Assembly (NCBI GenBank): GCA_963664875.1
Contig: OY761611.1
Location: 1,600,001 to 1,664,000, forward strand
DNA: 64,000 nt
Reading direction: 5' to 3'
Source of the DNA: Candidatus Kapaibacterium sp.
Lineage (GTDB): Bacteria > Bacteroidota > Ignavibacteria > Kapaibacteriales > UBA2268
Numbering within the stretch: the stretch's first letter is position 1; every line of letters begins with the position of its first letter. Under the pieces are notes generated by a model. The model searched no databases. It saw nothing but the letters and a program-made list of their open reading frames with translations, and was not told the DNA's origin. Shown here piece by piece: positions 8,751-64,000 of this stretch. The position numbers and the translations under genes were made by a program.

Positions 8751-8754
8751 TAAA

Positions 8755-9405: not shown

Positions 9406-9425
9406 TTATATCCTCAGGTGTTTCT

Positions 9426-20498: not shown

Positions 20499-22622
20499 TT
20501 AGCCTATATTCAACTGCGCCTGGATTTCTATTTCGGTGTCAGCAGGGAGCTCTGTATAGCTTATTACACTCACCATAGGGAATGGAGTGCGTACCATTCG
20601 ATACAAATATGGTCTTACCTGAGCAGAGCAAATCACCACAGGAAGATACCCTGCCATAGTAATCTCATCTATCGAATCAGACATAGCTTTCTGGATATCC
20701 TGTACATAATTTGGAGGAAGTCCCAATGTAATCGAAGTGCTTGCCTGATTGTCTGACTGCAGAGCTCTTGTCATTTGGTCTTCTATCTGCGGACTAACTG
20801 CAATGGCATGAATCACTCCATTTTGGTCCTGATAGAGTTTCTTGATTGTTTCAGACAGATTGTGACGGACATATTCTGTCAGCACATCTACGTTCTGAGT
20901 AACTTTCACATACTCTAAGAGTGATTCAATAATAATTGGTAAATCTCTTACAGGAATGTTTTCCATCAATAAGTTTTGGAGGACTTTCTGAAGGATAGAT
21001 ATAGGAAGTCTATCCGGTGTAGCTTCTTCTATAAGAGCCGGGTAGTCTGATTTCAAGTTATCAACGAGATGTTTCGTATCCTGTCTTGTAAGCAATTTAT
21101 GAGAATTTCTTCGTAATAGTTCTGTCAAGTGCGTAGTTAGTACAGTAGCAGCTTCGACAACTGTATATCCATATACTTCTGCATCTTCTCTGTCTGCATG
21201 TCCTATCCATGTAGCCGGCAAGCCAAATACCGGTTCGGTAACCTGAATGCCTTTCAAATCACCATCCGCAGTACCCGGATTCATAGCTAAAAGCATTTGA
21301 GGATGCAAAATGTTTCTGGCAATCTCATTTCCTCTGATTTTGATTACATATTCCTGAGGATCGAGTTGCAGATTGTCTCTAACTCTCACAGGAGGCAAGA
21401 TTATACCAAGCTCAGTAGCAAGCTGTCTTCTGACATTAGTAATACGTTTAAACACATCTCCCCCTTGGCTTTCATCAACCAGAGAGATTAGACTGTAGCC
21501 AAGTTCTATCTCGACCGGATCAACTCTAAGAAGCTCTTCCACAGGGGACTCTTCCGGCTTTTTAGATTTTTCTGCAGTGGCTACTTCCAAAGCAAGCTGA
21601 GTTTCTTCTTCTTTTTGTATTTGCTTTGTTCTGTAATAAGCAGCGTAACCTATAATAGCTGCAAGCAACCAGAAAGGAATACTTGGGAAACCGGGTAGAA
21701 ATGAAACTACCATCAGAGCAAAAGAGGCTAATGCCATTGGTTTTGGCTTTCCGGCAAACTGTCTGCCCATCTCCACGTCTATGTTGTCAGAAGATGCAGA
21801 ACGTGTAACAACCAAGCCGGCTGCAATAGAAATCAATAAAGAAGGAATCTGCGAAACTAAACCATCACCAATTGTAAGTATAGTATATGTTGCAGCAGCA
21901 TCTGCCAGCTCCATATCGAGTTGCATAATACCAATAATAAAACCACCAATAATGTTTATCGCGGCTATGATAAGACCAGCTATGGCATCACCTTTGATAA
22001 ATTTGGCAGCACCATCCATCGAACCAAAAAAGTCTGACTCAGCAGTCAGCTCTGAGCGACGTTTTCGGGCAGTTTGTTCATCTATAAATCCGGCATTCAA
22101 ATCAGCATCTATACTCATCTGTTTGCCCGGCAATGCATCTAATGTAAATCGGGCAGTTACTTCTGCAATACGGGTGGAACCTTTGATAACTACAACAAAG
22201 TTGATAATTAACAGGATAAGAAATATAATTACACCAACTACATAGTTGCCCTTGATAACAAACTCTCCAAAGGCATGAATAATATCTCCGGCGTTTGCCT
22301 CGCCAAGAATCAAACGGGTAGAGGCAACATTCAAGCCGAGCCTGAATATAGTAGATATTAGCAATACAGTTGGAAAAGATGAAAATTCTAATGGAGATTT
22401 GAGATAAACCGCGACAAGCAATATAAGCACAGAGAAGGCTATATTAACTGCCAGAAAAAGATCCAGCATCATTGCAGGCAGCGGAATAATGAGCAATGAC
22501 AAAATAAGAAGTACACCCATAGCCACTGCCAAATCTGGGTTTTTGGTCAAATATGGCAATATATTCTTTAAATCCGGCAAAATACCGGGCTGGAATGCAC
22601 TTGCTTGTTTATTTTTAGCCAT
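20499..22622 (-). CDS. flhA: Flagellar export apparatus protein FlhA
   Basis: 'RLGLNVASTRLIL', 'RIAEVTARFTLDALPGKQMSIDADL', 'FFGSMDGAAKFIKGDAIAG', 'IGDGLVSQIP', 'EPVFGLPATWI' (flagellar type). Confidence 0.95.
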   Translation of the reverse strand: MAKNKQASAFQPGILPDLKNILPYLTKNPDLAVAMGVLLILSLLIIPLPAMMLDLFLAVNIAFSVLILLVAVYLKSPLEFSSFPTVLLISTIFRLGLNVASTRLILGEANAGDIIHAFGEFVIKGNYVVGVIIFLILLIINFVVVIKGSTRIAEVTARFTLDALPGKQMSIDADLNAGFIDEQTARKRRSELTAESDFFGSMDGAAKFIKGDAIAGLIIAAINIIGGFIIGIMQLDMELADAAATYTILTIGDGLVSQIPSLLISIAAGLVVTRSASSDNIDVEMGRQFAGKPKPMALASFALMVVSFLPGFPSIPFWLLAAIIGYAAYYRTKQIQKEEETQLALEVATAEKSKKPEESPVEELLRVDPVEIELGYSLISLVDESQGGDVFKRITNVRRQLATELGIILPPVRVRDNLQLDPQEYVIKIRGNEIARNILHPQMLLAMNPGTADGDLKGIQVTEPVFGLPATWIGHADREDAEVYGYTVVEAATVLTTHLTELLRRNSHKLLTRQDTKHLVDNLKSDYPALIEEATPDRLPISILQKVLQNLLMENIPVRDLPIIIESLLEYVKVTQNVDVLTEYVRHNLSETIKKLYQDQNGVIHAIAVSPQIEDQMTRALQSDNQASTSITLGLPPNYVQDIQKAMSDSIDEITMAGYLPVVICSAQVRPYLYRMVRTPFPMVSVISYTELPADTEIEIQAQLNIG

Positions 22623-46739: not shown

Positions 46740-47043
46740 AATGCTTCCCTTTATTATGTTAATTAAACTATTATATAAATGGGATACTTGTCTTTTTAAA
46801 CAGGTTTGATTATCCTGCTCATAAGGAAATACACAAGAAGTTTTTTTTGGTTGCAAACATATTTGATTTTTTTATCGGATTTATGCAATTCTATAAATAG
46901 CAGAGTCAGTATATATTATAGTACAGTAGAAAAAAGATTCTGATTTTGTATTTGTTATTCTTTGAACCTTCTTATTACTGAGGAGTATTACTTAATAACG
47001 AGTTGACATTCGTTTCGCTCGCTCCTTGAATAGAAAACAGATT

Positions 47044-49595: not shown

Positions 49596-51011
49596 ATGAG
49601 ATGGATTTTATTCTTGATTTTGTCTTTACCTTTGCTACAACTCGAATCTGCCGAATACAAATGGAATGTGATTAAAGACAATTCTGCAAATTTATTATCT
49701 GCTAATCATATAGCTTCTATTGATTCTAATAGTTATATAGTTGCCAAATCTAAAGGATATTCATTAAACAATTTCAGATATATAATAAAAACAGAAGATT
49801 ATGGTATGACGTGGGACACTCTCTTTTTTGAAGATATTCCTATGACTACTGATTTTGGTGACTATGCTATTACTGATTTAGTTGCTATAAATGACAAGCA
49901 CATTTTTGCTGCTTATGGATTTAACTCATATCTAAAATCTACAAATGGAGGAAAAGACTGGGAAGACTTTAGATTTCAAGATACATCATTTAACTTTTTA
50001 AGAATTACGCAAGATAATAATCTCATATTCTTAGGGGAAAACAGGACAGGAAAATATGCAGTTAGCAACGATTTTGGGAAATCATGGGAAGTTAAACATA
50101 TAAATTTTTCAATTGACTCGATAGATAAATATGATAACATTATGTATGATACTCCCTGGAGAAAAAAAGATACATTATATTCATTGATTTACCTTCAAAC
50201 CAAAGTGCCATTTATGTCATATTTGTCTTTTATTACTAACAGTTTATTGATTTACAGTGCTGATGACGGGCATTCCTGGCAACAGATGATTTATGTTGAA
50301 GAATTAGGAATCATGCGAAGTATGGCGATGTATGATAACAAAATCATTACTCAGGTCATCAATAATACTTTTCATCCTGAATTGGTAGTATCGCCCGATG
50401 ATGGATCGCTTGATACGTTTTGGGTCTCCAGTGCTCACAAAAGAATAGCTGCCTTTGATAAGACAGATGGCTCTTGTACATTCCTGACAGATTCTGTTGA
50501 TTTTAAAATGGGAAATGTAGTCGATATGCAATACTATGAAAATGGTTTGCTAAGTATGGCAACTGAAATCTATACTTATGTATCTAAGGATTACGGGGTT
50601 ACATGGGAGAAAGAAGAAACTAATGAGGAAAAACCAATATCAAAAGTGGCAAGACCATGTATCAATAAAGGTTTAATGATAGGAGACAATTACTATGCAA
50701 TCCTCGAACCTATCACTTCTGTTTTTAATAACCGAAGTTTGCTTCCGGAAACGATTTCTCTTTTCCCAAATCCAATATCCAAAAGTAACAAACTGCATAT
50801 CGAGTTCGAAGTAGAAATTCAGGGAGAATATTCCTTCAGTTTGACTTCTGCGGATGGTGCCAAATTTGATTTTAATCAGAAGTATTTCGCAGTTCCCGGC
50901 AACAACACAATATCTTTGGATATTCCGAAAGAAGTTGCTGCAGGAGCATATTTCCTAAGCATCGCAAAAGACGGAGAAATCCTTGCAGTGAAGCAATTAG
51001 TAGTACATTAA
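49596..51011 (+). CDS. Secreted Asp-box (BNR) beta-propeller-like protein with T9SS CTD, copy A
   Basis: Signal peptide; Asp-boxes TEDYGMTW, STNGGKDW, SNDFGKSW, SADDGHSW, SKDYGVTW; CTD 'LFPNP...AGAYFLSI...KQLVV'. Confidence 0.82.
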   Translation: MRWILFLILSLPLLQLESAEYKWNVIKDNSANLLSANHIASIDSNSYIVAKSKGYSLNNFRYIIKTEDYGMTWDTLFFEDIPMTTDFGDYAITDLVAINDKHIFAAYGFNSYLKSTNGGKDWEDFRFQDTSFNFLRITQDNNLIFLGENRTGKYAVSNDFGKSWEVKHINFSIDSIDKYDNIMYDTPWRKKDTLYSLIYLQTKVPFMSYLSFITNSLLIYSADDGHSWQQMIYVEELGIMRSMAMYDNKIITQVINNTFHPELVVSPDDGSLDTFWVSSAHKRIAAFDKTDGSCTFLTDSVDFKMGNVVDMQYYENGLLSMATEIYTYVSKDYGVTWEKEETNEEKPISKVARPCINKGLMIGDNYYAILEPITSVFNNRSLLPETISLFPNPISKSNKLHIEFEVEIQGEYSFSLTSADGAKFDFNQKYFAVPGNNTISLDIPKEVAAGAYFLSIAKDGEILAVKQLVVH

Positions 51012-51090: not shown

Positions 51091-52506
51091 ATGAGATGGA
51101 TTTTATTGTTGATTTTGACTTTACCTTTGCTACAACTTGAATCTGCCGAATACAAATGGAATGTGATTAAAGACAATTCTACAAATTTTTTATCTGTTAA
51201 TCATATAGCTTCTATTGATTCTAATAGTTATATAGTTGCCAAATCTAAAGGATATTCATTAAACAATTTCAGATATATAATAAAAACAGAAGATTATGGT
51301 ATGACGTGGGACACTCTCTTTGTTGAAGATATTCCTATGACTACTGATTTTATGGACTATGCTATCTCTGATTTAGTTGCAATAGATGACAAGCACATTT
51401 TTGCTGCTTATGGATTTAACTCCTATCTAAAATCTACAAATGGGGGAAAAGACTGGGAAGACTTTAGATTTCAAGATACCTCATTTAACTTTTTAAGAAT
51501 TACGCAAGATAATAATCTCTTATTCTTAGGGGAAAACAGGACAGGAAAATATGCAGTTAGCAATGATTTTGGGAAATCATGGGAAGTTAGGCACATCAAT
51601 TTTTCGATTGATTCGATAGATAAATATGATAACATTATGTATGATACTCCCTGGAGAAAAAAAGATACATTATATTCATTGATTTACCTTCAAACCAAAG
51701 TACCATTTATGTCAAATTTATCTTTTATTACCAACAGTTTGTTGATTCACAGCACTGATGACGGGCAATCCTGGCAACAGATGATTTATGTTGAAGAATT
51801 AGGAATCATGCCAAGTATGGCAATGTATGATAACAAAATCATTACTCAGGTCATCAATAATACTTTCCATCCTGAATTGGTAGTATCGCCCGATGATGGA
51901 TCGCTTGATACGTTTTGGGTCTCCAGTGCTCACAAAAGAATAGCTGCCTTTGATAAGACAGATGGCTCTTGTACATTCCTGACAGATTCTGTTGATTTTA
52001 AAATGGGAAATGTAGTCGATATGCAATATTATGAAAATGGTTTGCTAAGTATGGCAACTGAAATCTATACTTATGTATCTAAGGATTACGGTGTTACATG
52101 GGAGAAAGAAGAAACTAATGATAAAAAACCAATATCAAAAGTGGAAAGACCATGTATCAATAAAGGTTTAATGATAGGAGACAATTACTATGCAATCCTC
52201 GAACCTATCACTTCTGTTTTTAATAACCGAAATTTGCTTCCGGAAACGATTTCTCTTTTCCCAAATCCAATATCCAAAAGTAACAAACTGCATATCGAGT
52301 TCGAAGTAGAAAATCAGGGAGAATATTCCTTCAGTTTGACTGCTGCTGATGGTGCCAAATTTGATTTTAATCAGAAGTATTTCGCAGTTCCCGGCAACAA
52401 CACAATATCTTTGGATATTCCGAAAGAAGTTGCTGCAGGAGCATATTTCCTAAGCATCGCAAAAGACGGAGAAATCCTTGCAGTGAAGCAATTAGTAGTA
52501 CAGTAA
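51091..52506 (+). CDS. Secreted Asp-box beta-propeller-like protein with T9SS CTD, copy B
   Basis: ~95% identical to 49596..51011. Confidence 0.82.
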   Translation: MRWILLLILTLPLLQLESAEYKWNVIKDNSTNFLSVNHIASIDSNSYIVAKSKGYSLNNFRYIIKTEDYGMTWDTLFVEDIPMTTDFMDYAISDLVAIDDKHIFAAYGFNSYLKSTNGGKDWEDFRFQDTSFNFLRITQDNNLLFLGENRTGKYAVSNDFGKSWEVRHINFSIDSIDKYDNIMYDTPWRKKDTLYSLIYLQTKVPFMSNLSFITNSLLIHSTDDGQSWQQMIYVEELGIMPSMAMYDNKIITQVINNTFHPELVVSPDDGSLDTFWVSSAHKRIAAFDKTDGSCTFLTDSVDFKMGNVVDMQYYENGLLSMATEIYTYVSKDYGVTWEKEETNDKKPISKVERPCINKGLMIGDNYYAILEPITSVFNNRNLLPETISLFPNPISKSNKLHIEFEVENQGEYSFSLTAADGAKFDFNQKYFAVPGNNTISLDIPKEVAAGAYFLSIAKDGEILAVKQLVVQ

Positions 52507-52531
52507 TTTTTATAGAGTATAAATAACTTTG

Positions 52532-52570
52532 AAAAAGCTGTAGGCAGAAAACAACACTACAGCTTTTTTT
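52532..52570 (+). terminator. Intrinsic terminator
   Basis: aaaaagctgtag...ctacagcttttttt. Confidence 0.8.
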
Positions 52571-52650
52571 ATGGCTTTAAGCCTGTGAGTTGCTAATTTA
52601 ACCCAAAATGTCATTAGAAAAGCCAAATAAGTCATTATCTTGTTTCTTGG

Positions 52651-52847
52651 GAGGCTGTCTCATAAGTCAAAATTTGCAACATATTCTTGATGTTTGTAAG
52701 TTTTACCGACAGCTGAAGCAGTCGGTTGCACTTGTGTAACTCATTGCAACCGCATGCTTTAGCTTGCGGTAGAATAAAATATAATGTTTGTTTTTCCTCT
52801 ACTTTTACTAAAGAGTATGACAAAACTCAGACTTATGAGACAGTCCC
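52651..52847. mobile_element. MITE-like non-coding element with terminal inverted repeats and an internal REP-like pair
   Basis: ctgtctcataagtc (52655-52668) / gacttatgagacag (52830-52843) perfect 14-bp TIR; internal palindromes at 52705-52726 and 52749-52770. Confidence 0.7.
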
Positions 52848-53057
52848 TTCAAAGATACCATTGGTAAGTTTTTCTTAGATTTACGAATTGAATTCTTCTT
52901 TCCAAATTAAGTATCTTGCTAGTGTTTTGATTTCAAATGACAAATAAGGAATAATTGAACCGGTAAGCCCGGAGCAAAGAAGAAATATATTCTTAGAGCA
53001 TATCAACGTCTTTGTATATTTGTCTAATCACAATTTTCGGATTAGATTCGCTGAGTA

Positions 53058-54362
53058 TTATTCCTCTTCTTTATCTTTGATTTTGATAACTACAGTTTGG
53101 ATTTGACGTGTAGTTCGATCAACTATTCTTGCGAAAAACTCGTCGAATTCGATTATTTCACCTACTTCCGGTATTCTGCCTGTTTCTGATGTAATAAGCC
53201 CGCCAACTGTCTCATAATCTTCGCTTTCAGGCAAATCTATTGGCAGAAAGTCGTTTGCATCGTCGATTATCATCTGAGCCGAAATAGAATATTCTTTCTC
53301 AGAAAGCTTTTTGAGCAAAGGCAGCTCTTCGTCGTATTCGTCTTGGATTTCGCCGACTATTTCTTCTAATATATCTTCTAAAGTTACAAGACCTGCAGTA
53401 CCTCCAAATTCATTGAGAACAACTGCAATGTGCATCTTCCTTTTCTGAAGTGAACGCAAAAGGTCGTCTATCATGCTGTCTTCTGAGACAAAGTAAGGTT
53501 TCCTAAGGATATCTTTTAGTCTGAAATCTTCCGAATTTTTGAGCAAGCGAAGTATATCTTTTGCAAACACCATACCGATAATATTGTCTATATTGCCTTC
53601 ATATACGGGCATACGTGAGTACCCCTCTTCTATTATGGTATCGATAGTTTCGTTTTTGCTCATATTTACTTCTACAGCTATAATTTTATTGCGGGGTATC
53701 ATTATCTGCTTTACCTGAGTTTCCGCAAAATCAAAAACATTTTCTATCATTTTCTGCTCGGTGTCGTCTATCATGCCGCTTCTGCTACTTTCGGCAATTA
53801 TATATTTCAGCTCTTCGGGTGAGTGCATTTCCGAACCTTCCGATGGGGGTTTCACTCCAATAATACGCAGCATCATATTGGCAAAATTGTTTAGTACCCA
53901 TATCGCCGGTTTGAAAATAATATAAAACAGTCTCAATGGAAATGATACGCTAAGTGCCACCTGCTCTGAATATTGGATAGCAAGTGATTTTGGTGCAAGC
54001 TCTCCAAATACAATATGTAAAAATGTAATAAGTGCAAACGACAGTGGGAGTGCTATCTGATGTGCCGATTCCGGATTTAGATTTATGCCTACCAATTCGA
54101 GAGTGTTGATTACAATTTGGGCAACAACGCTTTCGCCTATCCAACCAAGCCCAAGCGAAGCAAGAGTGATCCCCAGCTGAGTAGCCGATAGGTAGCCATC
54201 GAGATGAGTTACCATGCTTTGTGCAATTTTTGCCATTTTGTTGCCTTCGCGGACTCTAAGTTCGATTTGCGAAGCTCGTACTTTGACAATGGCAAATTCT
54301 GCTGCCACAAAAAATCCGTTTAAAACTACGAAAAACAGGGTCAGGGCTATGTCAGATATCAT
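53058..54362 (-). CDS. Hemolysin family / CNNM-CBS-CorC domain protein
   Basis: 'NGFFVAAEFA', 'QLGITLASLGLGW', 'GELAPKS', 'YSRMPVY', 'EFGGTAGLVTLEDILEEIVGEIQDEYD'. Confidence 0.93.
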   Translation of the reverse strand: MISDIALTLFFVVLNGFFVAAEFAIVKVRASQIELRVREGNKMAKIAQSMVTHLDGYLSATQLGITLASLGLGWIGESVVAQIVINTLELVGINLNPESAHQIALPLSFALITFLHIVFGELAPKSLAIQYSEQVALSVSFPLRLFYIIFKPAIWVLNNFANMMLRIIGVKPPSEGSEMHSPEELKYIIAESSRSGMIDDTEQKMIENVFDFAETQVKQIMIPRNKIIAVEVNMSKNETIDTIIEEGYSRMPVYEGNIDNIIGMVFAKDILRLLKNSEDFRLKDILRKPYFVSEDSMIDDLLRSLQKRKMHIAVVLNEFGGTAGLVTLEDILEEIVGEIQDEYDEELPLLKKLSEKEYSISAQMIIDDANDFLPIDLPESEDYETVGGLITSETGRIPEVGEIIEFDEFFARIVDRTTRQIQTVVIKIKDKEEE

Positions 54363-54376
54363 ATTTATTTTTTCTT

Positions 54377-55123
54377 CTACTTCAAAAACAACTGTTTAGA
54401 TTTGAAAAAGACCTTCTTGTCCAAATGATAAGCAAAATATCTTGTAAAAAAGTCCACCAGCTCGCCGGCTTCTTTATCTGTCAGTTCGATTTCAGATATT
54501 TTGGAATGCTCTAATATAAAAATGTAATATAATTTTATATACGTTTCTTTTTCGATTGTAATATAATTGGAAGCAAAATTAGGCTCCTCGAGCAACCTCC
54601 CGCTATCAAGCGAAAATTTGCATAGGCTTTTGCCAAGGCGAAAGAGCTCTAAGTCTTCCAGAATATGCGGATCGAACTCGAAACCTAATTCAATAGCCAA
54701 ATGTATGCCAAAGCTGACAAAATAGGTGTACGGGGATTTGGGCAGGGAGTTCAAATCCTCCAAAATTAAGCGAAAGAAATCGAACAATTCGACATGGGGC
54801 GCGTTTAGTTCCTGAGTGATAAGCACAGATTCAGCTATCAGCAACGCCGCTCCTGTGTGGTCAAATGAGGTACTTATCTTTCTATATGGAACAATAATAT
54901 CAGCCTCAGCCAAGACGTGCAAATCCCTATTGGGTTTATGGTAAAATTTTATTTCTATATAGCTTAGTGGCTCGAGAGAAGCCGAAAATTTGGACTTCGC
55001 CTTGCGTACTCCTTTAGCGATAACAGTAATTTTGCCGTAATCCTTTGTGTACAAATTAACTATCTTGCTTGTGTCACCAAATTTTCTTGTATGCAATACT
55101 ATAGCTTCGGTTTTTTCAATCAT
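54377..55123 (-). CDS. recO: DNA repair protein RecO
   Basis: 'TEAIVL....GDTSKIV..YT...GKI..IAKGVRK.KSKF...LEP'. Confidence 0.9.
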   Translation of the reverse strand: MIEKTEAIVLHTRKFGDTSKIVNLYTKDYGKITVIAKGVRKAKSKFSASLEPLSYIEIKFYHKPNRDLHVLAEADIIVPYRKISTSFDHTGAALLIAESVLITQELNAPHVELFDFFRLILEDLNSLPKSPYTYFVSFGIHLAIELGFEFDPHILEDLELFRLGKSLCKFSLDSGRLLEEPNFASNYITIEKETYIKLYYIFILEHSKISEIELTDKEAGELVDFFTRYFAYHLDKKVFFKSKQLFLK

Positions 55124-55162
55124 GTGGCATTCTCATAATTTTAACGCAATATAAAATATTTC

Positions 55163-55193
55163 TTGCATAATTTTACAAAATAGTCTATTTTTG
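55163..55193 (+). promoter_or_regulatory. Bacteroidota-type promoter of first tRNA-Asn
   Basis: TTGCA-N18-TATTTTTG (TAnnTTTG -7 box); identical spacing upstream of the second copy. Confidence 0.6.
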
Positions 55194-55205
55194 TGTCGCT
55201 TTGAT

Positions 55206-55279
55206 TCCTGAGTAGCTCAGCTGGTTAGAGCATCTGACTGTTAATCAGAGGGTCCGCGGTTCAAGTCCGTGCTCAGGAG
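55206..55279 (+). tRNA. tRNA-Asn (GTT), copy 1
   Basis: Acceptor TCCTGAG/CTCAGGA, D-arm GCTC/GAGC, anticodon arm TCTGA-CTGTTAA-TCAGA, T-loop TTCAAGT; CCA not encoded. Confidence 0.97.
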
Positions 55280-55324
55280 CTTTAGTTCTAAAAAAAAAAA
55301 GATTTTCAAGTGCAAAAATATTAC

Positions 55325-55355
55325 TTGCACAATTAGAGAAAAACATTTATTTTTG
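55325..55355 (+). promoter_or_regulatory. Bacteroidota-type promoter of second tRNA-Asn
   Basis: TTGCA-N18-TATTTTTG. Confidence 0.6.
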
Positions 55356-55368
55356 TTTCTCTTTTGAT

Positions 55369-55442
55369 TCCTGAGTAGCTCAGCTGGTTAGAGCATCTGA
55401 CTGTTAATCAGAGGGTCCGCGGTTCAAGTCCGTGCTCAGGAG
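55369..55442 (+). tRNA. tRNA-Asn (GTT), copy 2
   Basis: Identical to copy 1. Confidence 0.97.
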
Positions 55443-55484
55443 CATTGAAAATCTATTTGATACTTATCCATGTGGTAAGTATAT

Positions 55485-55558
55485 TCCTGAGTAGCTCAGC
55501 TGGTTAGAGCATCTGACTGTTAATCAGAGGGTCCGCGGTTCAAGTCCGTGCTCAGGAG
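55485..55558 (+). tRNA. tRNA-Asn (GTT), copy 3
   Basis: Identical to copy 1. Confidence 0.97.
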
Positions 55559-55559
55559 C

Positions 55560-55591
55560 AAAAAGCTAATCCAAACGGGTTAGCTTTTTTT
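55560..55591 (+). terminator. tRNA cluster terminator
   Basis: aaaagctaatcc-aaac-gggttagctttttt. Confidence 0.85.
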
Positions 55592-55768
55592 GTTTTTAGA
55601 AACTCTTCTCAGTATGTCTGTGATTTCTGCCACTTATTCCCACTCATTCTCTATACCAATTTTTTCAAATCACCAATTTCTTGGCTCTGCTCATTTGTTT
55701 TCCGGCAAATGAAAAAGCAGAATTTATAAACGATATTTACTATTGTTAGCAAATCCAGTTAGCTGAAC

Positions 55769-55825
55769 AAAAAAATGGCTCTAATTGCATCTAATACCAG
55801 AAGTAAAAACAATTTGGAGCCATTT
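55769..55825 (-). terminator. Terminator of the T9SS paralogue array
   Basis: aaaatggctctaattg ... caatttggagccatttt inverted repeat with an A-run on its left. Confidence 0.6.
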
Positions 55826-55885
55826 ATATGCTTTTTGCAAACATAGGATAATTATATTTTATCAGATAATCGAAACAGGTACAAT

Positions 55886-57304
55886 CTATTGTATTACCAC
55901 CTTCTGAGCAGCTACAAACTGACCTTCTTTATAGATAGAAAGTATATATATTCCGGAAGCCAGCTCTGTGCTTAGATTGAGTGAAACTCTATTTAGTCCT
56001 GCGGTAAGTGTTTCCGTTTGCTTAATATTGCACTCCGATCCATCGAGTGCTGTGAGCTGCAGTGTATATTTGCCTGCCTCGTTTGCCTTGATATCTATTG
56101 TTATTTCATCATCTTTGCCTGCCGGATTCGGATAAACTGCTATTTCTGATGTCAATGGATTATGCTCGCTTACTGAGGTTGCGGGTTCGAGGGTGGCGAT
56201 AATACCTATCCCTACGGCTATTCCCTTCGAATGACTAACTCTTTCTACTTTGTCAAAAGAAGCTGTTTTTGAATCATTCTTCACTCTTAACTCTTCCTCC
56301 CAAGTATCTCCGTTATCAGTAGAAATATAGGCTCCCGAACGCATGTTCAAGCAGATAATATTGCCAAATTTTCTTAGGCTATTGAGACGATTCATTTTCA
56401 TTGAATTTGAATCTGCAAGGACAACCATTTCTCCTGATTCCCTGTTTATTTTTACAATCTTATAGTGAGGGGTTGCAGTGTAAACTGTATCTATTTCGCC
56501 TTTGGAGTTTTTTACAAGTACTTCTTCAAATGTGTATTCAGCAGTTTGAGTAAATATTGACTCCTGATCTACCACAAAATATTCTGAAAGCTCAACTTTT
56601 CTATTTGTATAAAACTGTTTCCAGGTCTCTCCATTGTCCGAACTCTCAAGGTAAACATTATGAATATAATTATTAAAATTGGACACGAAATTAGCTTTAT
56701 CAAAGAAAAAAATAGATTTATAGATTTTATCCTGAAAGAAAACCGGTTTACCTACCTTTATTTTTTCGTATATTTCTAACGAATCAATAGAATATAGAGG
56801 CTCTAATATTTCCCATGTATTTCCCAGGTCAGTGCTTTTTGCATACTTATCCATAGCACCAGCTATAAAGACAATGCTATCTCTCGCAGAGATTTTGTTA
56901 TAAGTAAATGATTCGTCAGAAAGTTTTGATTCTTTCCAGGTAATTCCCTTATCTTCGGATTTGAGCAGAGACATATAACCACAAAGGGCTATAATATTGC
57001 TTTTATCTAAATATTTAATATCTGTAAAGAAATAGTTAGCAGCTTCAGGGTATCCCTTGTCTGTAATATCTTCAAAAAAAAGTGTATCCCACGTTTTGCC
57101 ATAGTCTGTAGTTTGTTCAATCATCCTATAATAAATAAAATCGAATCCTGAACTTGCACAAATATAAGTGGAGCTATCCAGAGCAGAAATAAAATGCCCA
57201 GCCATTGGATTATAGTCCCATTTTTCAGAAACATTCCATTGGTAGTCTGAAGCGGAAAGTATGTAGGACATACAAAACAAAAGAATAAAAGAGAAGTAAC
57301 GCAT
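55886..57304 (-). CDS. Secreted Asp-box beta-propeller-like protein with T9SS CTD (array member 1)
   Basis: Signal peptide MRYFSFILLFC..., Asp-boxes TTDYGKTW/STDLGNTW/SSDNGETW/STDNGDTW, CTD 'VYPNPA...SGIYILSI'. Confidence 0.82.
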   Translation of the reverse strand: MRYFSFILLFCMSYILSASDYQWNVSEKWDYNPMAGHFISALDSSTYICASSGFDFIYYRMIEQTTDYGKTWDTLFFEDITDKGYPEAANYFFTDIKYLDKSNIIALCGYMSLLKSEDKGITWKESKLSDESFTYNKISARDSIVFIAGAMDKYAKSTDLGNTWEILEPLYSIDSLEIYEKIKVGKPVFFQDKIYKSIFFFDKANFVSNFNNYIHNVYLESSDNGETWKQFYTNRKVELSEYFVVDQESIFTQTAEYTFEEVLVKNSKGEIDTVYTATPHYKIVKINRESGEMVVLADSNSMKMNRLNSLRKFGNIICLNMRSGAYISTDNGDTWEEELRVKNDSKTASFDKVERVSHSKGIAVGIGIIATLEPATSVSEHNPLTSEIAVYPNPAGKDDEITIDIKANEAGKYTLQLTALDGSECNIKQTETLTAGLNRVSLNLSTELASGIYILSIYKEGQFVAAQKVVIQ

Positions 57305-57682
57305 AGTAATCCTATATAGTTGAGTAAATGAAATCATTGTGCATTTTAAAACGATGCCAAATATTTATTCGGAAATAACCACCTTCTGAGCAGCTACAAA
57401 CAGCCCTTCTTTATAGATAGTAAGTATATATATTCCGGAAGCCAGCTCTGTGCTTAGATTGAGTGAAACTCTATTTAGTCCGGCGGAAAGTGTTTCCGTT
57501 TGCTTAATATTGCACTCCGAACCATCGAGTGCTGTGAGCTGCAGTGTATATTTGCCTGCCTCGTGTGCCTCAAAGTCTATTGTTATTTCATCATCTTTGC
57601 CTGCCGGATTCGGATAAACTGCTATTTCTGATGTCAATGGATTATGCTCGCTTACTGAGGTTGCGGGTTCGAGGGTGGCGAT
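57233..57682 (-). repeat. ~450-bp direct repeat (second copy 60385-60835) spanning CTD + intergenic region + next signal peptide
   Basis: 'tgagtaaatgaaatcattgtgcatttt(t)aaaacgatgccaaatatttat' and 'gtatgtaggacatacaaaacaaaagaataaa' occur in both copies. Confidence 0.92.
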
Positions 57683-58783
57683 ATATCCGGGACCTACCAT
57701 CATGCCCTGAGAAACAGAGACTCTATCTATGCCGCTGAAAAAATGAGTTTTTCCTGAAGAACTATAGAATGCTTCTTCTTCCCACGATATTCCAAAATCC
57801 GTTGAAATATATGAACTTGTTATAGTGCTCAAGCATAAAGTGTTAGCAAATTTGTCCATAGACCTTATTGCAGGCCAATAATAAGATGTTGAATCCGAGA
57901 GGATTGTTTTTTCTCCGGAGAACTTGTCAATTTTTATAATTTCATAATATCCGGTCGCAAAATGTGCGGTATCAATATTCCCATCCGGATCTTTCACAAT
58001 TGTAGTATCAAAAATATTATATCCTGCTTGCCCCCAGATAAATTGTTCATCAACAGAAAAAACAGGACTCAATTCATACTCATTAACAAAGAACAAACTT
58101 TCCCAGCTTTCCCCTAAATCTGTACTGAAAAGAAACAAACAATCAGTAAAATAGTTTAAGTTTGAAATAAACGGTACTTTTGTCTGCAAATACTTAATGG
58201 TATAAAGCGTATCTTGATACATAACCGGAGTCAATGTAAACGTATTATCATAAGTATAATTAGAATCTGTAACAATATCAACACTCTTTAGCTCCCAAGT
58301 TCTTCCCATGTCTTTACTAATGACAAATTGATTATTTACTCCGCCTAACATAATTATGCTGTCTTTAGAATAAATATTGCTAAAATGAACAGTAGAGTCA
58401 AAATAAGATGTATCAATCCAAGATTGCCCCCCATTAGTGGTCTGAAGAATTTGTTGATTCCCACATAAGGCAATAATATTATCTTTATCCAAGAATGTGA
58501 CATCATAAATAAAATGTCGCTTGTAATCAAAACTTTCTTCTATTGTTGAGGCATATAAGGTATCCCATGTTTTTCCTTTATTGAAGGTCCAAAGCAATGC
58601 CCTATATTTGTTATTGTTTGAGGTAGAGAAAGATCTTACGTACGAGTTGGAATCAAGTGCAGAAATACGATCAATTGATAAATCGTTAGAATTACTTACT
58701 CTTTCGATATTCCATTGATATTTACTCTCTGCATATAACATACTATTCAGCAACAAAGATATAATTACGATTATATAAAACAT
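57365..58783 (-). CDS. Secreted Asp-box beta-propeller-like protein with T9SS CTD (array member 2)
   Basis: Signal peptide, Asp-boxes SKDMGRTW/STDLGESW/STDFGISW, constant CTD. Confidence 0.82.
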   Translation of the reverse strand: MFYIIVIISLLLNSMLYAESKYQWNIERVSNSNDLSIDRISALDSNSYVRSFSTSNNNKYRALLWTFNKGKTWDTLYASTIEESFDYKRHFIYDVTFLDKDNIIALCGNQQILQTTNGGQSWIDTSYFDSTVHFSNIYSKDSIIMLGGVNNQFVISKDMGRTWELKSVDIVTDSNYTYDNTFTLTPVMYQDTLYTIKYLQTKVPFISNLNYFTDCLFLFSTDLGESWESLFFVNEYELSPVFSVDEQFIWGQAGYNIFDTTIVKDPDGNIDTAHFATGYYEIIKIDKFSGEKTILSDSTSYYWPAIRSMDKFANTLCLSTITSSYISTDFGISWEEEAFYSSSGKTHFFSGIDRVSVSQGMMVGPGYIATLEPATSVSEHNPLTSEIAVYPNPAGKDDEITIDFEAHEAGKYTLQLTALDGSECNIKQTETLSAGLNRVSLNLSTELASGIYILTIYKEGLFVAAQKVVISE

Positions 58784-59028
58784 AACAATTCCTTTTTTAA
58801 TAAACGAAGCTTGTGTTGCGATGCATTCTATTTTGTCTCGGTTGATAGCCCAACCGTAACCTGATTGAAACGCATCTATAACTTGTTTTTAAGACTAAGC
58901 ACTCAGCAAAACACACCTATGCTCAAAGTGTCTTGAACAAACCGTACGTCAGTAACAACAACAGAAAAGATGTAAATACCAATGCTTTATAGTGTATTTA
59001 CGTTGTACTCCATGCAATACTAAACAAT

Positions 59029-60456
59029 CTATTGTATTACCACCTTCTGAGCAGCTACAAACAGCCCTTCTTTATAGATAGAAAGTATATATATGCCTGA
59101 AGCCAGCTCTGCGCTTAGATTAAGTGAAACTCTATTTAGTCCGGTGGAAAGTGTTTCCGTTTGCTTAATATTGCACTCCGATCCATCGAGTGCTGTGAGC
59201 TGCAGTGTATATTTGCCTGACTCGTGTGCCTCAAAGTCTATTGTTATTTCATCATCTTTGCCTGCCGGATTCGGATAAACTGCTATTTCTGATGTCAAGG
59301 GATTATGCTCGCTTACTGAGGTTGCGGGTTCGAGGGTAGCGAAACAGCTCAAACCAACTGCCATACCTTTTGTACTCGTCGTTCTTGCAAGATCAAAAAA
59401 GAGCGAAACTTCTCCTTCTTTTGTGATTCTTTTCTCTTCGAACCAAGATTTTCCGAAATCTGAAGATTTGTATGATTTTGTATTTGCGGAAGCCATTATG
59501 TCGGAATTTATAATATCCAAATTGCTTATAGAAGGCATGTTTAAAACAGCAGTGTCAACAATTGTCCGATTAGTACCGTCACTCAAATCGACTGCCATAA
59601 TTTTTCTGTGCGGAGTAGCAACAAACAGCGTATCTACACCATCGCCATTAGGCTTGTTGACTAAAACATCTTTAAATGTATAATCAGTAGCCTGCAAAAA
59701 CAATTCTCCATTATGAATTACAAAATCTGTGCTAACTTCAAACTCATCTAACAGCAAAAGATTCTCCCACGTTTCTCCACTATCAGTACTTTTCAAATAC
59801 AAACAATGCTTGTGGTATGACAATGTGGACATAAACTCAATTTCATCTAACAAAAAAACAGGGAGGTATAGGTTTCCGTCAAACTCTTTAGGAGGAAAAA
59901 TAGAAATGTTCTCATATTTATCAACTGAATCAATCTCAATTTGAATTTGCTGCAAATTCCAACTATTCCCTTTATCTCTGCTAATTCCTATATACTCTGA
60001 TGATGCCCCACCTACAAAAACATTATCTCCGTAGCTCATTATTTTTGTATAGTTGAATGATGGGTCAAAGTAATTTGTATCAATCCACGATTTGCCGCCA
60101 TCAGAAGTTCTTACTAAGCCATTGTACCCATAGACTGCAATTATGTTGTCTAAATCCAAAAAAGCTATGTCAGTAAACATAAAAAATAAGTAATCAGAAT
60201 ATTCATTTCCCATTTCCTTAAAATAGATTGTATCCCAAGATTGACCATAATCGTTGGTTAATTCAATAAATCTAAAAGCCGGTGGGTTAGTGTATGTTCT
60301 AGTTATAGCATAATTTAAAGAATCATAAGCTGAGATTTGTCCCATTGAGACTGGATTAGAATCGTCTTGAAGTTTAAATTTAAAATTCCATTGGTAGTCG
60401 GAAGCGGTAAGTATGTAGGACATACAAAACAAAAGAATAAAGGAGAAGTAACGCAT
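59029..60456 (-). CDS. Secreted Asp-box beta-propeller-like protein with T9SS CTD (array member 3)
   Basis: Signal peptide nearly identical to member 1, Asp-boxes TNDYGQSW/TSDGGKSW/STDSGETW/SSDFGKSW, constant CTD. Confidence 0.82.
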   Translation of the reverse strand: MRYFSFILLFCMSYILTASDYQWNFKFKLQDDSNPVSMGQISAYDSLNYAITRTYTNPPAFRFIELTNDYGQSWDTIYFKEMGNEYSDYLFFMFTDIAFLDLDNIIAVYGYNGLVRTSDGGKSWIDTNYFDPSFNYTKIMSYGDNVFVGGASSEYIGISRDKGNSWNLQQIQIEIDSVDKYENISIFPPKEFDGNLYLPVFLLDEIEFMSTLSYHKHCLYLKSTDSGETWENLLLLDEFEVSTDFVIHNGELFLQATDYTFKDVLVNKPNGDGVDTLFVATPHRKIMAVDLSDGTNRTIVDTAVLNMPSISNLDIINSDIMASANTKSYKSSDFGKSWFEEKRITKEGEVSLFFDLARTTSTKGMAVGLSCFATLEPATSVSEHNPLTSEIAVYPNPAGKDDEITIDFEAHESGKYTLQLTALDGSECNIKQTETLSTGLNRVSLNLSAELASGIYILSIYKEGLFVAAQKVVIQ

Positions 60457-60518
60457 AGATGAACCTGTATAATTGAGTAAATGAAATCATTGTGCATTTT
60501 TAAAACGATGCCAAATAT

Positions 60519-61949
60519 TTATCCGGAAATTACCACCTTCTGAGCAGCTACGAACTGACCTTCTTTATAGATAGAAAGTATATATATTCCGGAAGCCAGC
60601 TCTGAGCTTAGATTGAGTGAAACTCTATTTAGTCCGGCGGCAAGTGTTTCCGTTTGCTTAATATTGCTCTCTGAACCATCGAGTGCTGTGAGCTGCAGTG
60701 TATATTTGCCTGACTCGTTTGCCTTGATATCTATTGTTATTTCATCATCTTTGCCTGCCGGATTCGGATAAACTGCTATTTCTGATGTCAAGGGATTATG
60801 CTCGCTTACTGAGGTTGCGGGTTCGAGGGTAGCGAATTTCCCACTCCCCACCATGAAGCCTTTCGACATAGAGACTCTATCAAAATCATTAATCATACCG
60901 GCAGTTTTATTATTTGAATTCCAAACTTCTTTTACCCATGTATTCCCATAATCAGACGAATAAAATGACTGAAAAAAAGTAGAAATGAATAAGTAATCGT
61001 CAAACTTGTTCATATTAGTTATGCTTCCACAAGTAAAAGAGACAGAGTCAGTAATGACATCCATTTTACTATTGTGTCTGTTTATTTTTACCATTTGCCA
61101 ATGCGGAGTTGGCGATAATGTAGTATCGAGTCCTGTGCCGTCTGGTTTATAAACTAAAACAGTATCGAATGTATAATCAACTGATTGGGTATAAAAATAA
61201 GTATCATCAATTACATAATTTATTGATAGGCCGAGGTCATCAATTTTAAACATCTTTTGCCAATTTTTGCCTTTATCGGTACTATACATAAATAAATTAT
61301 CAGTCAGTAATTCCAACTGAGACTTAAAAGGGACTCTATGCCTCAAATGAACTAACGTATAAAGGGTATCGTTTCTCATCTTAGGAGTATAAATTATAGT
61401 ATCATCATATTGTCTCTCTTGGTTAAGCTCTATATTAATCGCCTGAAGCCTCCAAGTTTTGCCTAAATCATTACTAATTCCCATGAATTTATCTGTAGCA
61501 CTTGCAACTATAACTAAGCTGTCATACGAGTTGATTTCGTTATAAGCAAAGGAATCATCAAAATAGCTTGTATCTATCCATGACTTCCCACCATCGGTAC
61601 TTTGCAAAAAATTGTTAAAGCCACATATTGCTAAAATGTTATCCTTATCCAGATATTTGATATCAGTGATTACATATTTGTATATTTCCCAAGAATTATA
61701 ATTCAAATCTTCATAAAAGAGAGTATCCCAAGTTTGCCCATAATCATCTGTTTTTTCAATACATCTTGAATATGGATAGCTATATGTAGTTCTACTAACA
61801 ACTGCATGATTTTGATCAAGGCAGGATACCCTATTGACAGAAGCTGGGAGCACTTTTTCAGAACTCAGATGTGTAAACTTCCATTCGTAATCACTACAAA
61901 ATAGAGCAGAACAAGAGATAATAAATATAAGTAAAACTACACTCTTCAT
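60519..61949 (-). CDS. Secreted Asp-box beta-propeller-like protein with T9SS CTD (array member 4)
   Basis: Signal peptide, Asp-boxes TDDYGQTW/STDGGKSW/SNDLGKTW/SSDYGNTW, constant CTD. Confidence 0.82.
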   Translation of the reverse strand: MKSVVLLIFIISCSALFCSDYEWKFTHLSSEKVLPASVNRVSCLDQNHAVVSRTTYSYPYSRCIEKTDDYGQTWDTLFYEDLNYNSWEIYKYVITDIKYLDKDNILAICGFNNFLQSTDGGKSWIDTSYFDDSFAYNEINSYDSLVIVASATDKFMGISNDLGKTWRLQAINIELNQERQYDDTIIYTPKMRNDTLYTLVHLRHRVPFKSQLELLTDNLFMYSTDKGKNWQKMFKIDDLGLSINYVIDDTYFYTQSVDYTFDTVLVYKPDGTGLDTTLSPTPHWQMVKINRHNSKMDVITDSVSFTCGSITNMNKFDDYLFISTFFQSFYSSDYGNTWVKEVWNSNNKTAGMINDFDRVSMSKGFMVGSGKFATLEPATSVSEHNPLTSEIAVYPNPAGKDDEITIDIKANESGKYTLQLTALDGSESNIKQTETLAAGLNRVSLNLSSELASGIYILSIYKEGQFVAAQKVVISG

Positions 61950-62147
61950 GATATTGTCTCAATAAATAAGAATAAATTTGCTTTATCTACACACTAATAG
62001 TTAGAAGGTTCATATATAAATTTTTTTTGCATTTATGTTTAGAGTATTTTGTATCTCAATTCTCTATTACCATTTTTTAGCAAAAAGTTGTATCTTTGCT
62101 AATTAGGATTATGCTATTTATAATTTATCAATATATAGGTTTTTATC

Positions 62148-63500
62148 ATGGCTGATTCAAGATATAAATCGTTTAAGTACATCGAAGACCTTTATAAATT
62201 CGAAGGCGAAGTAGTTACTTTACGAGGTTGGCTTTATAACAAAACAGGCAAAGGCAAACTTCAATTCTTGCTCATGCGCGACGGCACAGGAGTGGCACAA
62301 TGTATATTGTTCAAACCAAATTTGGGCGAAGAAAAATTTGCTGAAGCTAAATCGCTTACTCAGGAATCTTCCTTCGAAGTAACCGGCAAAGTGGTTGCCA
62401 ACGAAAAAGCTCCGGGCGGATTCGAAATAGATGTGGAAGACTTCAAAGTATTTCAGATTGCAGAAGAGTACCCTATCACTCCTAAAGAGCATGGCGATTC
62501 TTTTTTAATTGAACACCGCCACCTTTGGTTGCGTTCTAAGCGCCAACATGCTATAATGAGAGTAAGAGCAGCAGTTGTAAAAGCAATTCGCGATTTCTTC
62601 GATGGCAACGGTTTCAAACTTATGGATTCTCCAATTTTGACTCCAAGCGCTTGCGAAGGCACTTCTACTTTGTTTGAGACTAACTATTTCGATCTTGGCA
62701 AAGCATATTTGTCTCAGTCAGGCCAGCTATACGCAGAAGCATCCGCTATGGCTCTCGGTAAAGTATATACATTCGGCCCTACGTTCCGTGCTGAGCAATC
62801 AAAAACAAGAAAGCATCTAACTGAGTTTTGGATGGTAGAACCTGAAATGGCTTTCTTCGATTTGAATGACGATATGGATTTGGCGGAAGATTTGGTAGAG
62901 TATATTGTTCACTATGCTGTCAAAACCTGCCAGCGCGAGCTAATTGATCTAGAAAGAGACATCACTAAATTAGAAAAAGTTGTTCGTCCTTTCAATCGCA
63001 TGAGCTACGACGACGCTGTAGATTGGTTGCAACAAAATGATATTCCTATTATCCGCAAAGTAGATGGGCAGGAAGTAAAAGAGCAGTTCCCTTGGGGTGA
63101 AGACCTTGGCACACCACAAGAAGAAGCAATAATGGAACAGTTCGACAAACCATGTATAATCCACCGCTATCCGTCTGAAGTGAAAGCATTTTACATGAAA
63201 CGCGACCCACAAAATGACAAAGTGGTATTGGCTATGGATATGCTTGCTCCTGAAAAGGCAGGAGAAATCATTGGTGGCAGTCAAAGAGAAGACAATATAG
63301 ACTTACTTTTGGAAAGAATCAGACATCATGAGCTTCCGGAAGAAGATTACAAATGGTATTTGGATTTGCGCCGCTACGGCTCAGTCCCTCACTCAGGATT
63401 TGGTCTTGGAGTAGAGCGTGTAGTCAAATGGATTACCGGTGCTAAGCACATCAGAGAGGTAATTCCAATGCCACGTATGATCCACAGGATTATCCCATAA
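62148..63500 (+). CDS. asnS: Asparagine--tRNA ligase
   Basis: OB-fold 'RDGTG', 'AYLSQSGQLYAE', 'FGPTFRAEQSKTRKHLTEFWMVEPE', 'GEIIGGSQRE', 'YGSVPHSGFGLGVER'; TATCTTTG promoter box near 62091. Confidence 0.96.
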   Translation: MADSRYKSFKYIEDLYKFEGEVVTLRGWLYNKTGKGKLQFLLMRDGTGVAQCILFKPNLGEEKFAEAKSLTQESSFEVTGKVVANEKAPGGFEIDVEDFKVFQIAEEYPITPKEHGDSFLIEHRHLWLRSKRQHAIMRVRAAVVKAIRDFFDGNGFKLMDSPILTPSACEGTSTLFETNYFDLGKAYLSQSGQLYAEASAMALGKVYTFGPTFRAEQSKTRKHLTEFWMVEPEMAFFDLNDDMDLAEDLVEYIVHYAVKTCQRELIDLERDITKLEKVVRPFNRMSYDDAVDWLQQNDIPIIRKVDGQEVKEQFPWGEDLGTPQEEAIMEQFDKPCIIHRYPSEVKAFYMKRDPQNDKVVLAMDMLAPEKAGEIIGGSQREDNIDLLLERIRHHELPEEDYKWYLDLRRYGSVPHSGFGLGVERVVKWITGAKHIREVIPMPRMIHRIIP

Positions 63501-63523
63501 TCAAATAATTTGCTACAAGAGAC

Positions 63524-63562
63524 AAAGCAGTATTTCTAAGAAAAGAGATACTGCTTTTTTTT
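63524..63562 (+). terminator. asnS terminator
   Basis: aaagcagtatttct...agagatactgctttttttt. Confidence 0.8.
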
Positions 63563-63880
63563 AAACCTTTAACAATGGTTTTGAGTTAAAACTAAATTGA
63601 AATACTTGTCAAAATTCGAGTTCGAATGTAAATCAAAAATTCTTTACAGATCATTTTATAATATGATAATAGCTATCGATTACAAATTTCACTCTATAGA
63701 TAACCTCTTGTATATGGGTTTGTCATATTGAATTACATATCAAGAGATTATATATAGTTTCTAATTTTATCTTTATTTTTATTATATTGAGATTTTGTAT
63801 TAGTAACTGATATAGTTATTTATTTATAGAAGTTTTTATAATAATGCAAAATCAAAAAATCAGTAATTGTAGGAGTACTA

Positions 63881-64000
63881 ATGAGATTAGCGATTCTTCT
63901 TCTCGGATTATTCAGTTTTGTGAACTTACAGGCTGAAAATTATTATTGGGTTGGAGGCTCAGGAGATTGGGCTGAATATTTTTATCATTGGGCATACGAA
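63881..64000 (+). CDS. N-terminus of a secreted surface protein (truncated by the window edge)
   Basis: AGGAG RBS; MRLAILLLGLFSFVNLQAENYYWVGGSGDW..., a signal peptide followed by the 'YWVGGSG.W' start seen in large FCB surface proteins. Confidence 0.7.
   Translation, partial: MRLAILLLGLFSFVNLQAENYYWVGGSGDWAEYFYHWAYE

Follow-up and report, generated by a model that had tools for sequence, protein, structure and literature searches.

Why are the last 307 nucleotides (nt) of four neighbouring genes 93-97% identical when the rest of each gene has diverged down to the DNA level? This question is raised by an array of four cargo genes of the type IX secretion system (T9SS), here named g1 to g4, in a 64,000-nt stretch of a Candidatus Kapaibacterium sp. 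contig (OY761611.1, positions 1,600,001 to 1,664,000; hereafter the window). The genes are all co-oriented on the minus strand and code for proteins of 472-476 amino acids (aa), each composed of a putative Sec signal peptide (recognized by eye) and a BNR/Asp-box body of ~350 aa, a putative beta-propeller, to which a linker of ~22 aa joins a C-terminal domain (CTD) of type A. We consider that the near-identical segment, hereafter the module, is probably the product of concerted evolution restricted to the CTD, by gene conversion or unequal recombination, with an occasional re-pairing of bodies and CTD types.

The contrast between the two parts of the genes was quantified from a codon alignment with Nei-Gojobori counts. 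In the six pairwise comparisons, the bodies are 50-52% identical in nt and 33-37% in aa, with saturated synonymous sites (proportion of synonymous differences, pS, 0.72-0.75), whereas the CTD regions are 93.2-95.5% identical in nt and 90-95% in aa, with a pS of 0.10-0.14 and a proportion of nonsynonymous differences (pN) of 0.028-0.045. The passage from one regime to the other is a step and not a gradient, since mean identity in 15-codon windows is 0.54 ahead of the ATLEP column and 0.97 from there on; at the DNA level the identity sets in, in all four copies, with TCGC(C/T)ACCCTCGAACCC, at the F|ATLEP codons (Table 1). Exact matches between copies extend over at most 62-106 nt in the module, against 10-14 nt in the bodies. 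The module encodes, in the g4 copy, the linker of ~22 aa (ATLEPATSVSEHNPLTSEIAV) together with the CTD, and the Pfam match to the CTD begins 22-25 residues past the module start. By blastn, the 64-kb window holds only these four copies, and two other T9SS CTDs of the window, taken as control, are only 21-22% identical in aa to the module. The first-pass annotation had described four paralogues with bodies diverged also in DNA and a near-identical C-terminal module with a sharp boundary at ATLEP, and the identities given above bear out both statements; it had also proposed a comparison of synonymous divergence, in which the CTDs turn out to lie far under the bodies, so the two are not alike. 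Its starting assumption, a generally poor conservation of T9SS CTDs, agrees with the control CTDs of the window and with excerpts of a study of other cargo proteins (PMC4404884).

Table 1. Positions in the window of the array genes, their modules, repeats and unique spacer, and of the p5 and p6 genes.
Feature	Position	Strand	Remarks
g4, T9SS cargo gene	60519-61949	-	476 aa, complete open reading frame (ORF); first in transcription order
307-nt module of g4	60529-60835	-	96.7% identical to the g1 copy (blastn)
Junction repeat R, copy 1	60382-60835	-	g4 module, stop codon, 60-nt spacer, g3 signal peptide to the YQWN codons
g3, T9SS cargo gene	59029-60456	-	475 aa; CTD ends in VVIQ, then unique sequence
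307-nt module of g3	59036-59342	-	94.5% identical to the g1 copy (blastn)
Unique spacer g3/g2	58784-59028	.	245 nt; divides two two-gene units; no Rfam match
g2, T9SS cargo gene	57365-58783	-	472 aa; CTD ends in VVISE, runs into the shared spacer and the g1 signal peptide
307-nt module of g2	57375-57681	-	96.1% identical to the g1 copy (blastn)
Junction repeat R, copy 2	57230-57681	-	g2 module, stop codon, 60-nt spacer, g1 signal peptide
g1, T9SS cargo gene	55886-57304	-	472 aa from the MRYF start
307-nt module of g1	55893-56199	-	Reference copy for module identities
p5, further family member	49596-51011	+	Whole-gene tandem duplicate with p6, 3.4 kb from the array
p6, further family member	51091-52506	+	Whole-gene tandem duplicate with p5, 3.4 kb from the array

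Two side observations concern the composition and the company of the module. Its G+C content is 0.43-0.44 and that of the bodies 0.33 (0.36-0.38 and ~0.30 at third codon positions; window 36.5%), which is compatible with biased conversion and could equally reflect amino-acid composition; in the related locus L003, described below, the G+C difference between CTDs and bodies is much smaller. The two large T9SS cargo genes of the window whose CTDs served as control are found at 12994-16431 (minus strand; LamG and PNGase F-like domains) and at 43854-46856 (minus strand; He_PIG and CarboxypepD_reg domains).

Past the stop codons of g2 and g4, similarity runs on through a 60-nt spacer into the signal peptides of g1 and g3, forming a junction repeat (R) whose two copies are identical at 426 of 452 nt; in the sequence on either side of it, identity is no more than 35/59 and 35/76. 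Near-identical DNA (94-95%) precedes and follows the bodies of both g1 and g3, which also have their signal-peptide region in common. With spacers of 60, 245 and 60 nt, the array is ordered as body4-R-body3-CTD, the 245-nt unique spacer, and body2-R-body1-CTD, and its C-terminal ends read VVIQ, VVISE and VVISG.

Inside the module, 23 of the 307 sites vary and 11 are informative 2:2 sites, which support three incompatible groupings of the copies: g1+g2 against g3+g4 (12|34, three sites), g1+g4 against g2+g3 (14|23, seven sites) and g1+g3 against g2+g4 (13|24, one site). These are interspersed in the order AABBBBBACBB (A, 12|34; B, 14|23; C, 13|24), which gives a Hudson-Kaplan minimum number of recombination events (Rmin) of 4. 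When parallel hits were simulated with uniform rates on a tree free of recombination, at least four incompatible sites were obtained in 0 of 200,000 runs (mean 0.10). All the CTD polymorphisms listed in the first-pass annotation were found, with the three incompatible pairings that it had drawn from them; its use of the VVIQ/VVIS ends as a 13|24 site stands as far as the split goes but not as a point polymorphism, since these ends mark the entry into two different flanks.

Do body and CTD travel together in related genomes? A genome scan queried with a 5-sequence alignment gave 13 loci, all outside the genome of the window, and close family members were found at four of them, namely L001 (a Chlorobiota metagenome-assembled genome, MAG), L002 and L004 (Candidatus Kapaibacterium MAG) and L003 (an uncultured bacterium). 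A fixed pairing of body and CTD across relatives had been named in the first-pass annotation as a finding that would speak against its reading, and the pairing is not fixed: L003 holds an orthologue of the g4 body (7465-8553; 85.6% identical in nt and 84% in aa, pS 0.40) that carries a different CTD (10028-10360; 49.5% identical in nt and 37% in aa to the g4 CTD, pS 0.70), and this CTD is shared with the neighbouring L003 gene at 10386-11807 (93.9% nt identity and pS 0.125 over the first 76 codons; 93.3% over 254 nt by blastn). The bodies of the same two L003 genes are 39% identical in aa, with a pS of 0.76. The homogenised tract of L003 begins at the same F-A-T-L codons as in the window, and the joint motif A-T-L-E/Q-P-x-T-S-V is kept across CTD types. 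We also noticed in L003 a DDE transposase gene (8554-10027; Pfam DUF772 and DDE_Tnp_1, 459 aa), ~10 codons upstream of the joint, the insertion of which divides the g4-type gene into a body ORF of 362 aa and a CTD ORF of 110 aa.

A second case is found between the sister genomes L001 and L002, where the first 148 nt of the CTD of the L001 g1-type gene match, at 97.3% identity, the CTD that another paralogue has in L002, the orthologous DNA flanking this tract being 91-93% identical. The proteins P0001 and P0003, from other samples, are orthologues of g1 (322/358 matches in the body, 98/103 in the CTD) and g3 (282/291 and 94/103), respectively. P0003 differs from g3 at 9 of 291 body positions and at 9 of 103 CTD positions, ~3 times as often in the CTD (Fisher p 0.027), and six of these nine CTD differences are states held by other copies of the window. 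P0003 ends in VVISE, as g2 does, a hint that the genes of the array may be ordered differently in another strain. In a CTD-only protein search within the near length range, four clusters at 90% identity were recovered at E<=0.001 among 127 candidates, all of the g1-g4 types; among 141 candidates of greater length none had a module-like CTD, shorter proteins not being searched.

The relatives show several irregularities at these genes. At L001 10760-10912, a run of seven T stands exactly at the joint of the g1-type gene and puts the CTD in another frame, and the contig ends inside the CTD; the run may be a sequencing or assembly error at the repeat, or a real frameshift. The g1-type gene of L002 (9096-9937) stops after ~190 codons when compared with its 91-93% identical L001 counterpart, and a same-frame remnant of unrelated CTD-like sequence follows beyond the stop codon, so that the locus resembles an array in which a deletion or rearrangement has left a scar. 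In L004, a 144-nt repeat of the 5' end of a family gene, covering the signal-peptide region, is present at 9983-10126 and 11506-11649 (99.3% identical); the repeated copy lies just downstream of that gene and abuts a RhuM-family gene on the opposite strand, which suggests a second tandem member truncated by insertion.

The uncoupling of body and CTD is also seen across the family, which is narrow (19 proteins at E<=1e-30 among 1.84 billion in an exhaustive representative search). An identity matrix was built for 22 proteins, with the fragments P0035, P0036, P0039 and P0050 set aside, and some of its pairs are alike in one part only: g4 and P0033 are 72% identical in aa in the body and 39% in the CTD, and the reverse is observed for P0033 and P0034 (31% and 89%), P0037 and P0005 (23% and 84%) and P0038 and P0041 (33% and 74%). 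A near-identical signal peptide is common to P0033 and P0034. Trees were computed for 17 of the 22 matrix rows (all but P0037, P0042, P0043, P0044 and P0046), with support from the Shimodaira-Hasegawa-like approximate likelihood ratio test (SH-aLRT). The body tree joins g4 with P0033 (SH-aLRT 100) and p5, p6 and P0005 with P0034 (99), and shows no pairing of g4 with g2 or of g3 with g1, whereas the CTD tree joins g1-g4 with P0001 and P0003 (support 99) and P0033 with P0034 (97). The approximately unbiased (AU) test rejects g4+P0033 on the CTD data (p 1.5e-5), the g1-g4 set on the body data (p about 1e-124) and P0033+P0034 on the body data (p 1.9e-4). In L003, in L001/L002, in the matrix and in the AU tests, one segment is thus more alike between paralogues of a genome than between orthologues of different genomes, and the rest of the gene tracks orthology.

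Two further family members of the window, p5 and p6, are 96% identical in nt in the body and 98% in the CTD. Their CTD is of a type of its own, 36-37% identical in aa to the module, and scores 20.0-20.2 bits with Pfam Por_Secre_tail, under the cut-off of 27. The same CTD type (84% aa) is carried by P0037 on its very different body (23% aa), with an identity that starts later, at the YPNP codons.

The assignment of g1-g4 to T9SS cargo is based on profile matches. The CTDs score 35.8-37.7 bits with Pfam Por_Secre_tail (PF18962; curated cut-off 27) and 32.5-37.1 bits with the NCBIfam T9SS type A sorting domain (TIGR04183; curated cut-off 23), and the bodies match BNR/Asp-box, Ycf48-like and Sortilin-Vps10 repeats of Pfam and NCBIfam, with PSII_BNR above its cut-off of 27 in g1 (30.0 bits) and under it in g2-g4. 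A profile search of PDB sequences gave short repeat-level similarity only, to HCF136/Ycf48 and BNR sialidases, the best match being 5oj3 (E 2.7e-7, over ~45 residues). Neither a match to peptidase families nor a toxin domain was detected in g1-g4 with Pfam and NCBIfam. The N-termini present, by eye, a basic end, a hydrophobic stretch of ~15 aa and a small-residue site ahead of (S/A)(D/E)YxW. An in-frame ATG of g1 lies upstream of its MRYF start, at 57337, within the shared spacer, and is probably not used, as the N-terminal alignment favours the start at 57304. Judging by these sequence features, g1-g4 would be secreted and their CTDs cleaved off. No T9SS machinery (PorK/L/M/N, Sov/SprA, PorU, PorV) was found among the 37 other ORFs of at least 150 aa scanned in the window.

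Promoter-like and terminator-like sites are no more frequent than in shuffled sequences (34 against 30.4 expected and 2 against 3.3 expected, respectively). The array is bordered on one side by three tandem tRNA-Asn(GTT) genes (55206-55559, plus strand), which are 93-99% identical including their flanks and are adjoined by recO (54377-55123), and on the other side by the asparaginyl-tRNA synthetase gene asnS (62148-63500, plus strand). Around the family genes of the relatives, only FlhA (FHIPEP; window 20499-22622, minus strand) recurs, beside those of L002; the two FlhA proteins are 93% identical in aa, and in L002 the FlhA gene immediately follows the family genes on their downstream side. 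Apart from the family, no gene is common to the window and the L003 locus.

How could such a segment be kept alike? The first-pass annotation had proposed recombination or gene conversion through the CTD, and this is borne out by the contrast in synonymous divergence (dS), the Rmin of 4, the L003 pairing and the incongruent trees. The dS contrast, the mosaic, the recurrence of the pattern in other genomes and the incongruence of body and CTD are observations; the process that we infer behind them is gene conversion of the RecA type, to which unequal crossing-over probably contributes. The array comprises four paralogues of ancient divergence, which belong to a narrow, Kapaibacteriaceae-like family of T9SS cargo; their linkers and CTDs, and at two junctions also the spacer that follows and the next signal peptide, would evolve in concert. 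Short-tract homologous recombination between the direct repeats would copy patches among the copies, which would hold the modules at their present identity and leave a mosaic of incompatible sites. Homologous recombination requires roughly 20-30 nt of identity. Upstream of F|ATLEP the bodies share no exact match above 14 nt, and exchange would stop there because no substrate for strand exchange is offered; as exact matches are long only in the module, exchange would start and travel only there, and the boundary would be self-sustaining. Selection would probably act against chimeric propellers as well. Homogenisation itself would be largely a self-sustaining by-product of tandem repeats and not an adaptation.

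Over longer times, a body could acquire a wholly different CTD type, that of its current neighbours, and the short conserved joint is a candidate microhomology for such a replacement of CTD or body across ~50% nt identity. The repeats plausibly homogenise the tags and ease the gain, loss or reordering of whole genes.

Several points weigh against concerted evolution of the CTD as the explanation, or against a simple form of it. Concerted evolution from a single ancestor leaves unaccounted for that the window and L003 differ more in the CTD (pS 0.70) than in the g4 body (pS 0.40), and since the CTD is the more diverged part, a replacement of CTD type or an import of the body is also needed. A permutation test of the pairwise homoplasy index (PHI) type on the 11 informative sites gave no significant result (p values of 0.18, 0.41 and 0.52 for k = 1, 2 and 3), an outcome that so few sites and such short patches make understandable; the statistical case for the mosaic therefore rests on four-gamete logic and on the uniform-rate simulation. 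Five of the seven 14|23 sites fall within one 11-nt patch and may reflect a single event. P0001 runs opposite to P0003, with 5/103 mismatches in its CTD and 36/358 in its body (p 0.12), the CTD being the more conserved part. The groups submitted to the AU test were chosen after the identity matrix was known, and P0001, P0003 and P0033-P0046 come without genomic context, so that CTD sharing within one genome is seen in the window, in L003 and across L001/L002 only. Assembly effects in the window are also conceivable, the array being known from assembled sequence.

Taken to its end, this last point would mean that repeats were collapsed and that the mosaic is the consensus of reads assigned to the wrong copy. 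Short reads poorly resolve repeats of 307-452 nt that recur every 1.5 kb, the contigs of relatives break at the CTD (L001 ends inside it), and the KLIKK loci of Tannerella forsythia were mis-assembled owing to such repeats, according to excerpts of PMC4404884. However, the proteins of the window are recorded on a contig of 3,827,814 bp, four distinct copies with 23 variable sites were resolved, and assemblies made independently (L003, L001/L002 and the contigs that encode P0001 and P0003) have the same architecture, so we regard an artefact as very unlikely. A constraint on the nucleotides themselves, by RNA structure or an embedded regulatory element, would suit a conservation that spans the non-coding 60-nt spacer; yet the module folds no better than its shuffles (z -0.14, 42 of 100 shuffles at least as good), the only Rfam matches in 52000-64000 are three tRNAs, the CTDs of relatives have quite different sequences but are homogenised locally, and the mosaic of incompatible sites would be left unexplained, which makes this reading hardly credible. 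Recent spread of one module, or of a two-gene unit, followed by very fast divergence of the bodies under diversifying selection could be read from the two-unit layout (body-R-body-CTD) and from p5/p6, where whole-gene duplication has occurred at 96% nt identity. It is highly improbable in view of the saturated synonymous sites of the bodies, of a body tree without the g4/g2 or g3/g1 pairing, and of the orthologues that the g4, g1, g3 and p5 body types have in other genomes or samples, according to which the bodies are older than the modules (pS ~0.1).

The first-pass annotation had gone further and proposed a diversification system comparable to a polymorphic-toxin array, in which the constant CTD, and for g1 and g3 also the signal peptide, would provide homology arms by which bodies are swapped or imported to vary the cell surface. 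The near-identical DNA (94-95%) on both sides of the g1 and g3 bodies, the re-pairing of bodies and CTD types across lineages, the g2-like end of P0003, with its hint of another array order in another strain, and the joint kept across CTD types are all in line with such exchange. But all four genes are complete, each with start codon, signal peptide and CTD, and the array has no silent or 5'-truncated cassettes and no single expression site. No partner ORFs occur in the spacers, which at 60, 245 and 60 nt are too short for a partner gene above ~80 aa, and the sole other ORF of the array (among those of at least 80 aa) is one of 86 aa, antisense within g3; the only recombinase- or integrase-like ORF seen lies ~50 kb away (6272-7186). 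In the orthologues of g1 and g3 from other samples, the bodies still have 90% and 97% aa identity, so they are stable while the CTDs change. Finally, the CTD is described as a tag that the PorU sortase removes (PMC4804311), and with the tag cleaved off, swapping near-identical tags would give no new mature protein. With complete genes, a tag that is presumably cleaved and neither silent cassettes nor a nearby recombinase, the claim of a surface-diversification system is not supported, and we consider it unlikely. A related idea is that joint, CTD and, in some members, spacer and signal peptide act as homology arms around whole bodies, which would be portable cassettes gained, lost, reordered or imported between strains and species. 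We hold this to be doubtful without being far-fetched: the g4 body, 85.6% identical in nt to that of L003 next to CTDs unrelated at the DNA level, could be a recent import of the body and not the outcome of CTD turnover. If true, the set of propellers displayed through the T9SS would be particular to each lineage, all of them carrying the export tag that is standard locally; such a locus would mirror polymorphic-toxin loci in a T9SS setting, with the polarity reversed, and would be a new way to build strain-specific surface repertoires.

In polymorphic toxins of the CdiA/Rhs type, a junction motif divides a constant from a variable part, and orphan cassettes, immunity partners and arrayed copies are found. 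The array resembles them in its conserved joint between constant and variable parts and in its arrayed copies, but differs in its reversed polarity and in having no orphan or silent cassettes, no immunity-like partners and no detected toxin domain.

Closer parallels to concerted evolution of the CTD were found in articles that we consider here through excerpts. In T. forsythia, the clustered genes of the KLIKK proteases code for T9SS cargo that ends in a 'virtually identical' CTD of ~86 aa, the other CTDs of that organism being variable; the authors call the identical CTDs unusual and leave their origin unexplained, and recombination is not analysed in the paper (PMC4404884). The likeness extends to a homologue of one KLIKK body in a relative, which has a clearly different CTD, and to the assembly errors caused by the repeats. 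The KLIKK bodies, however, are proteases whose catalytic classes are unrelated and which have additional conserved segments, whereas those of the array are homologous putative propellers with 33-37% identity, and the KLIKK end motif and peptidase domains are absent from g1-g4, so the array is an analogue and not a member of that group; in the array, moreover, dS, the mosaic and the cross-genome data point to gene conversion. In Helicobacter pylori, the intrastrain similarity of the 3' segments of babA/babB and homA/homB was attributed to concerted evolution by RecA-dependent conversion (PMC3960876, citing Pride and Blaser, 2002). In this textbook case of paralogous surface-protein genes too, strains resemble each other by orthology in the 5' and middle parts, and the closest match of the 3' segment lies within the same genome, but phylum and export route are others, the 3' segment encodes an outer-membrane barrel and not, as here, a T9SS signal that is presumably cleaved, and the bab loci are dispersed and their conversion changes adhesin expression and yields chimeras, whereas the array is known from sequence alone. 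For RgpA/Kgp/HagA of Porphyromonas gingivalis, a rearrangement of T9SS cargo domains by recombination and allelic exchange is described (PMC5266723, in part); a conserved CTD and modular domains reshuffled by recombination are common features, but the units shuffled in P. gingivalis are adhesin modules within the mature protein, exchanged between strains, and the unit of the array is the export tag. No description of CTD-restricted gene conversion in T9SS cargo was found in the literature searched, which comprised journals open without subscription. The array is a clean, not an unprecedented, case of concerted evolution.

The array carries two practical warnings, namely that CTD sequence is unfit for inferring the orthology of cargo proteins and that arrays of this kind break short-read assemblies. 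Concerted evolution of this kind would also provide a mechanism by which the 'unusual, unexplained' identity of the KLIKK CTDs could be understood. For Kapaibacteriaceae-like bacteria, a narrow and uncharacterised family of putative propellers, predicted to be secreted, is identified, and it provides a well-resolved natural example of domain-restricted concerted evolution, in which the T9SS export tag is a locally shared recombining pool and the bodies are stable orthologues.

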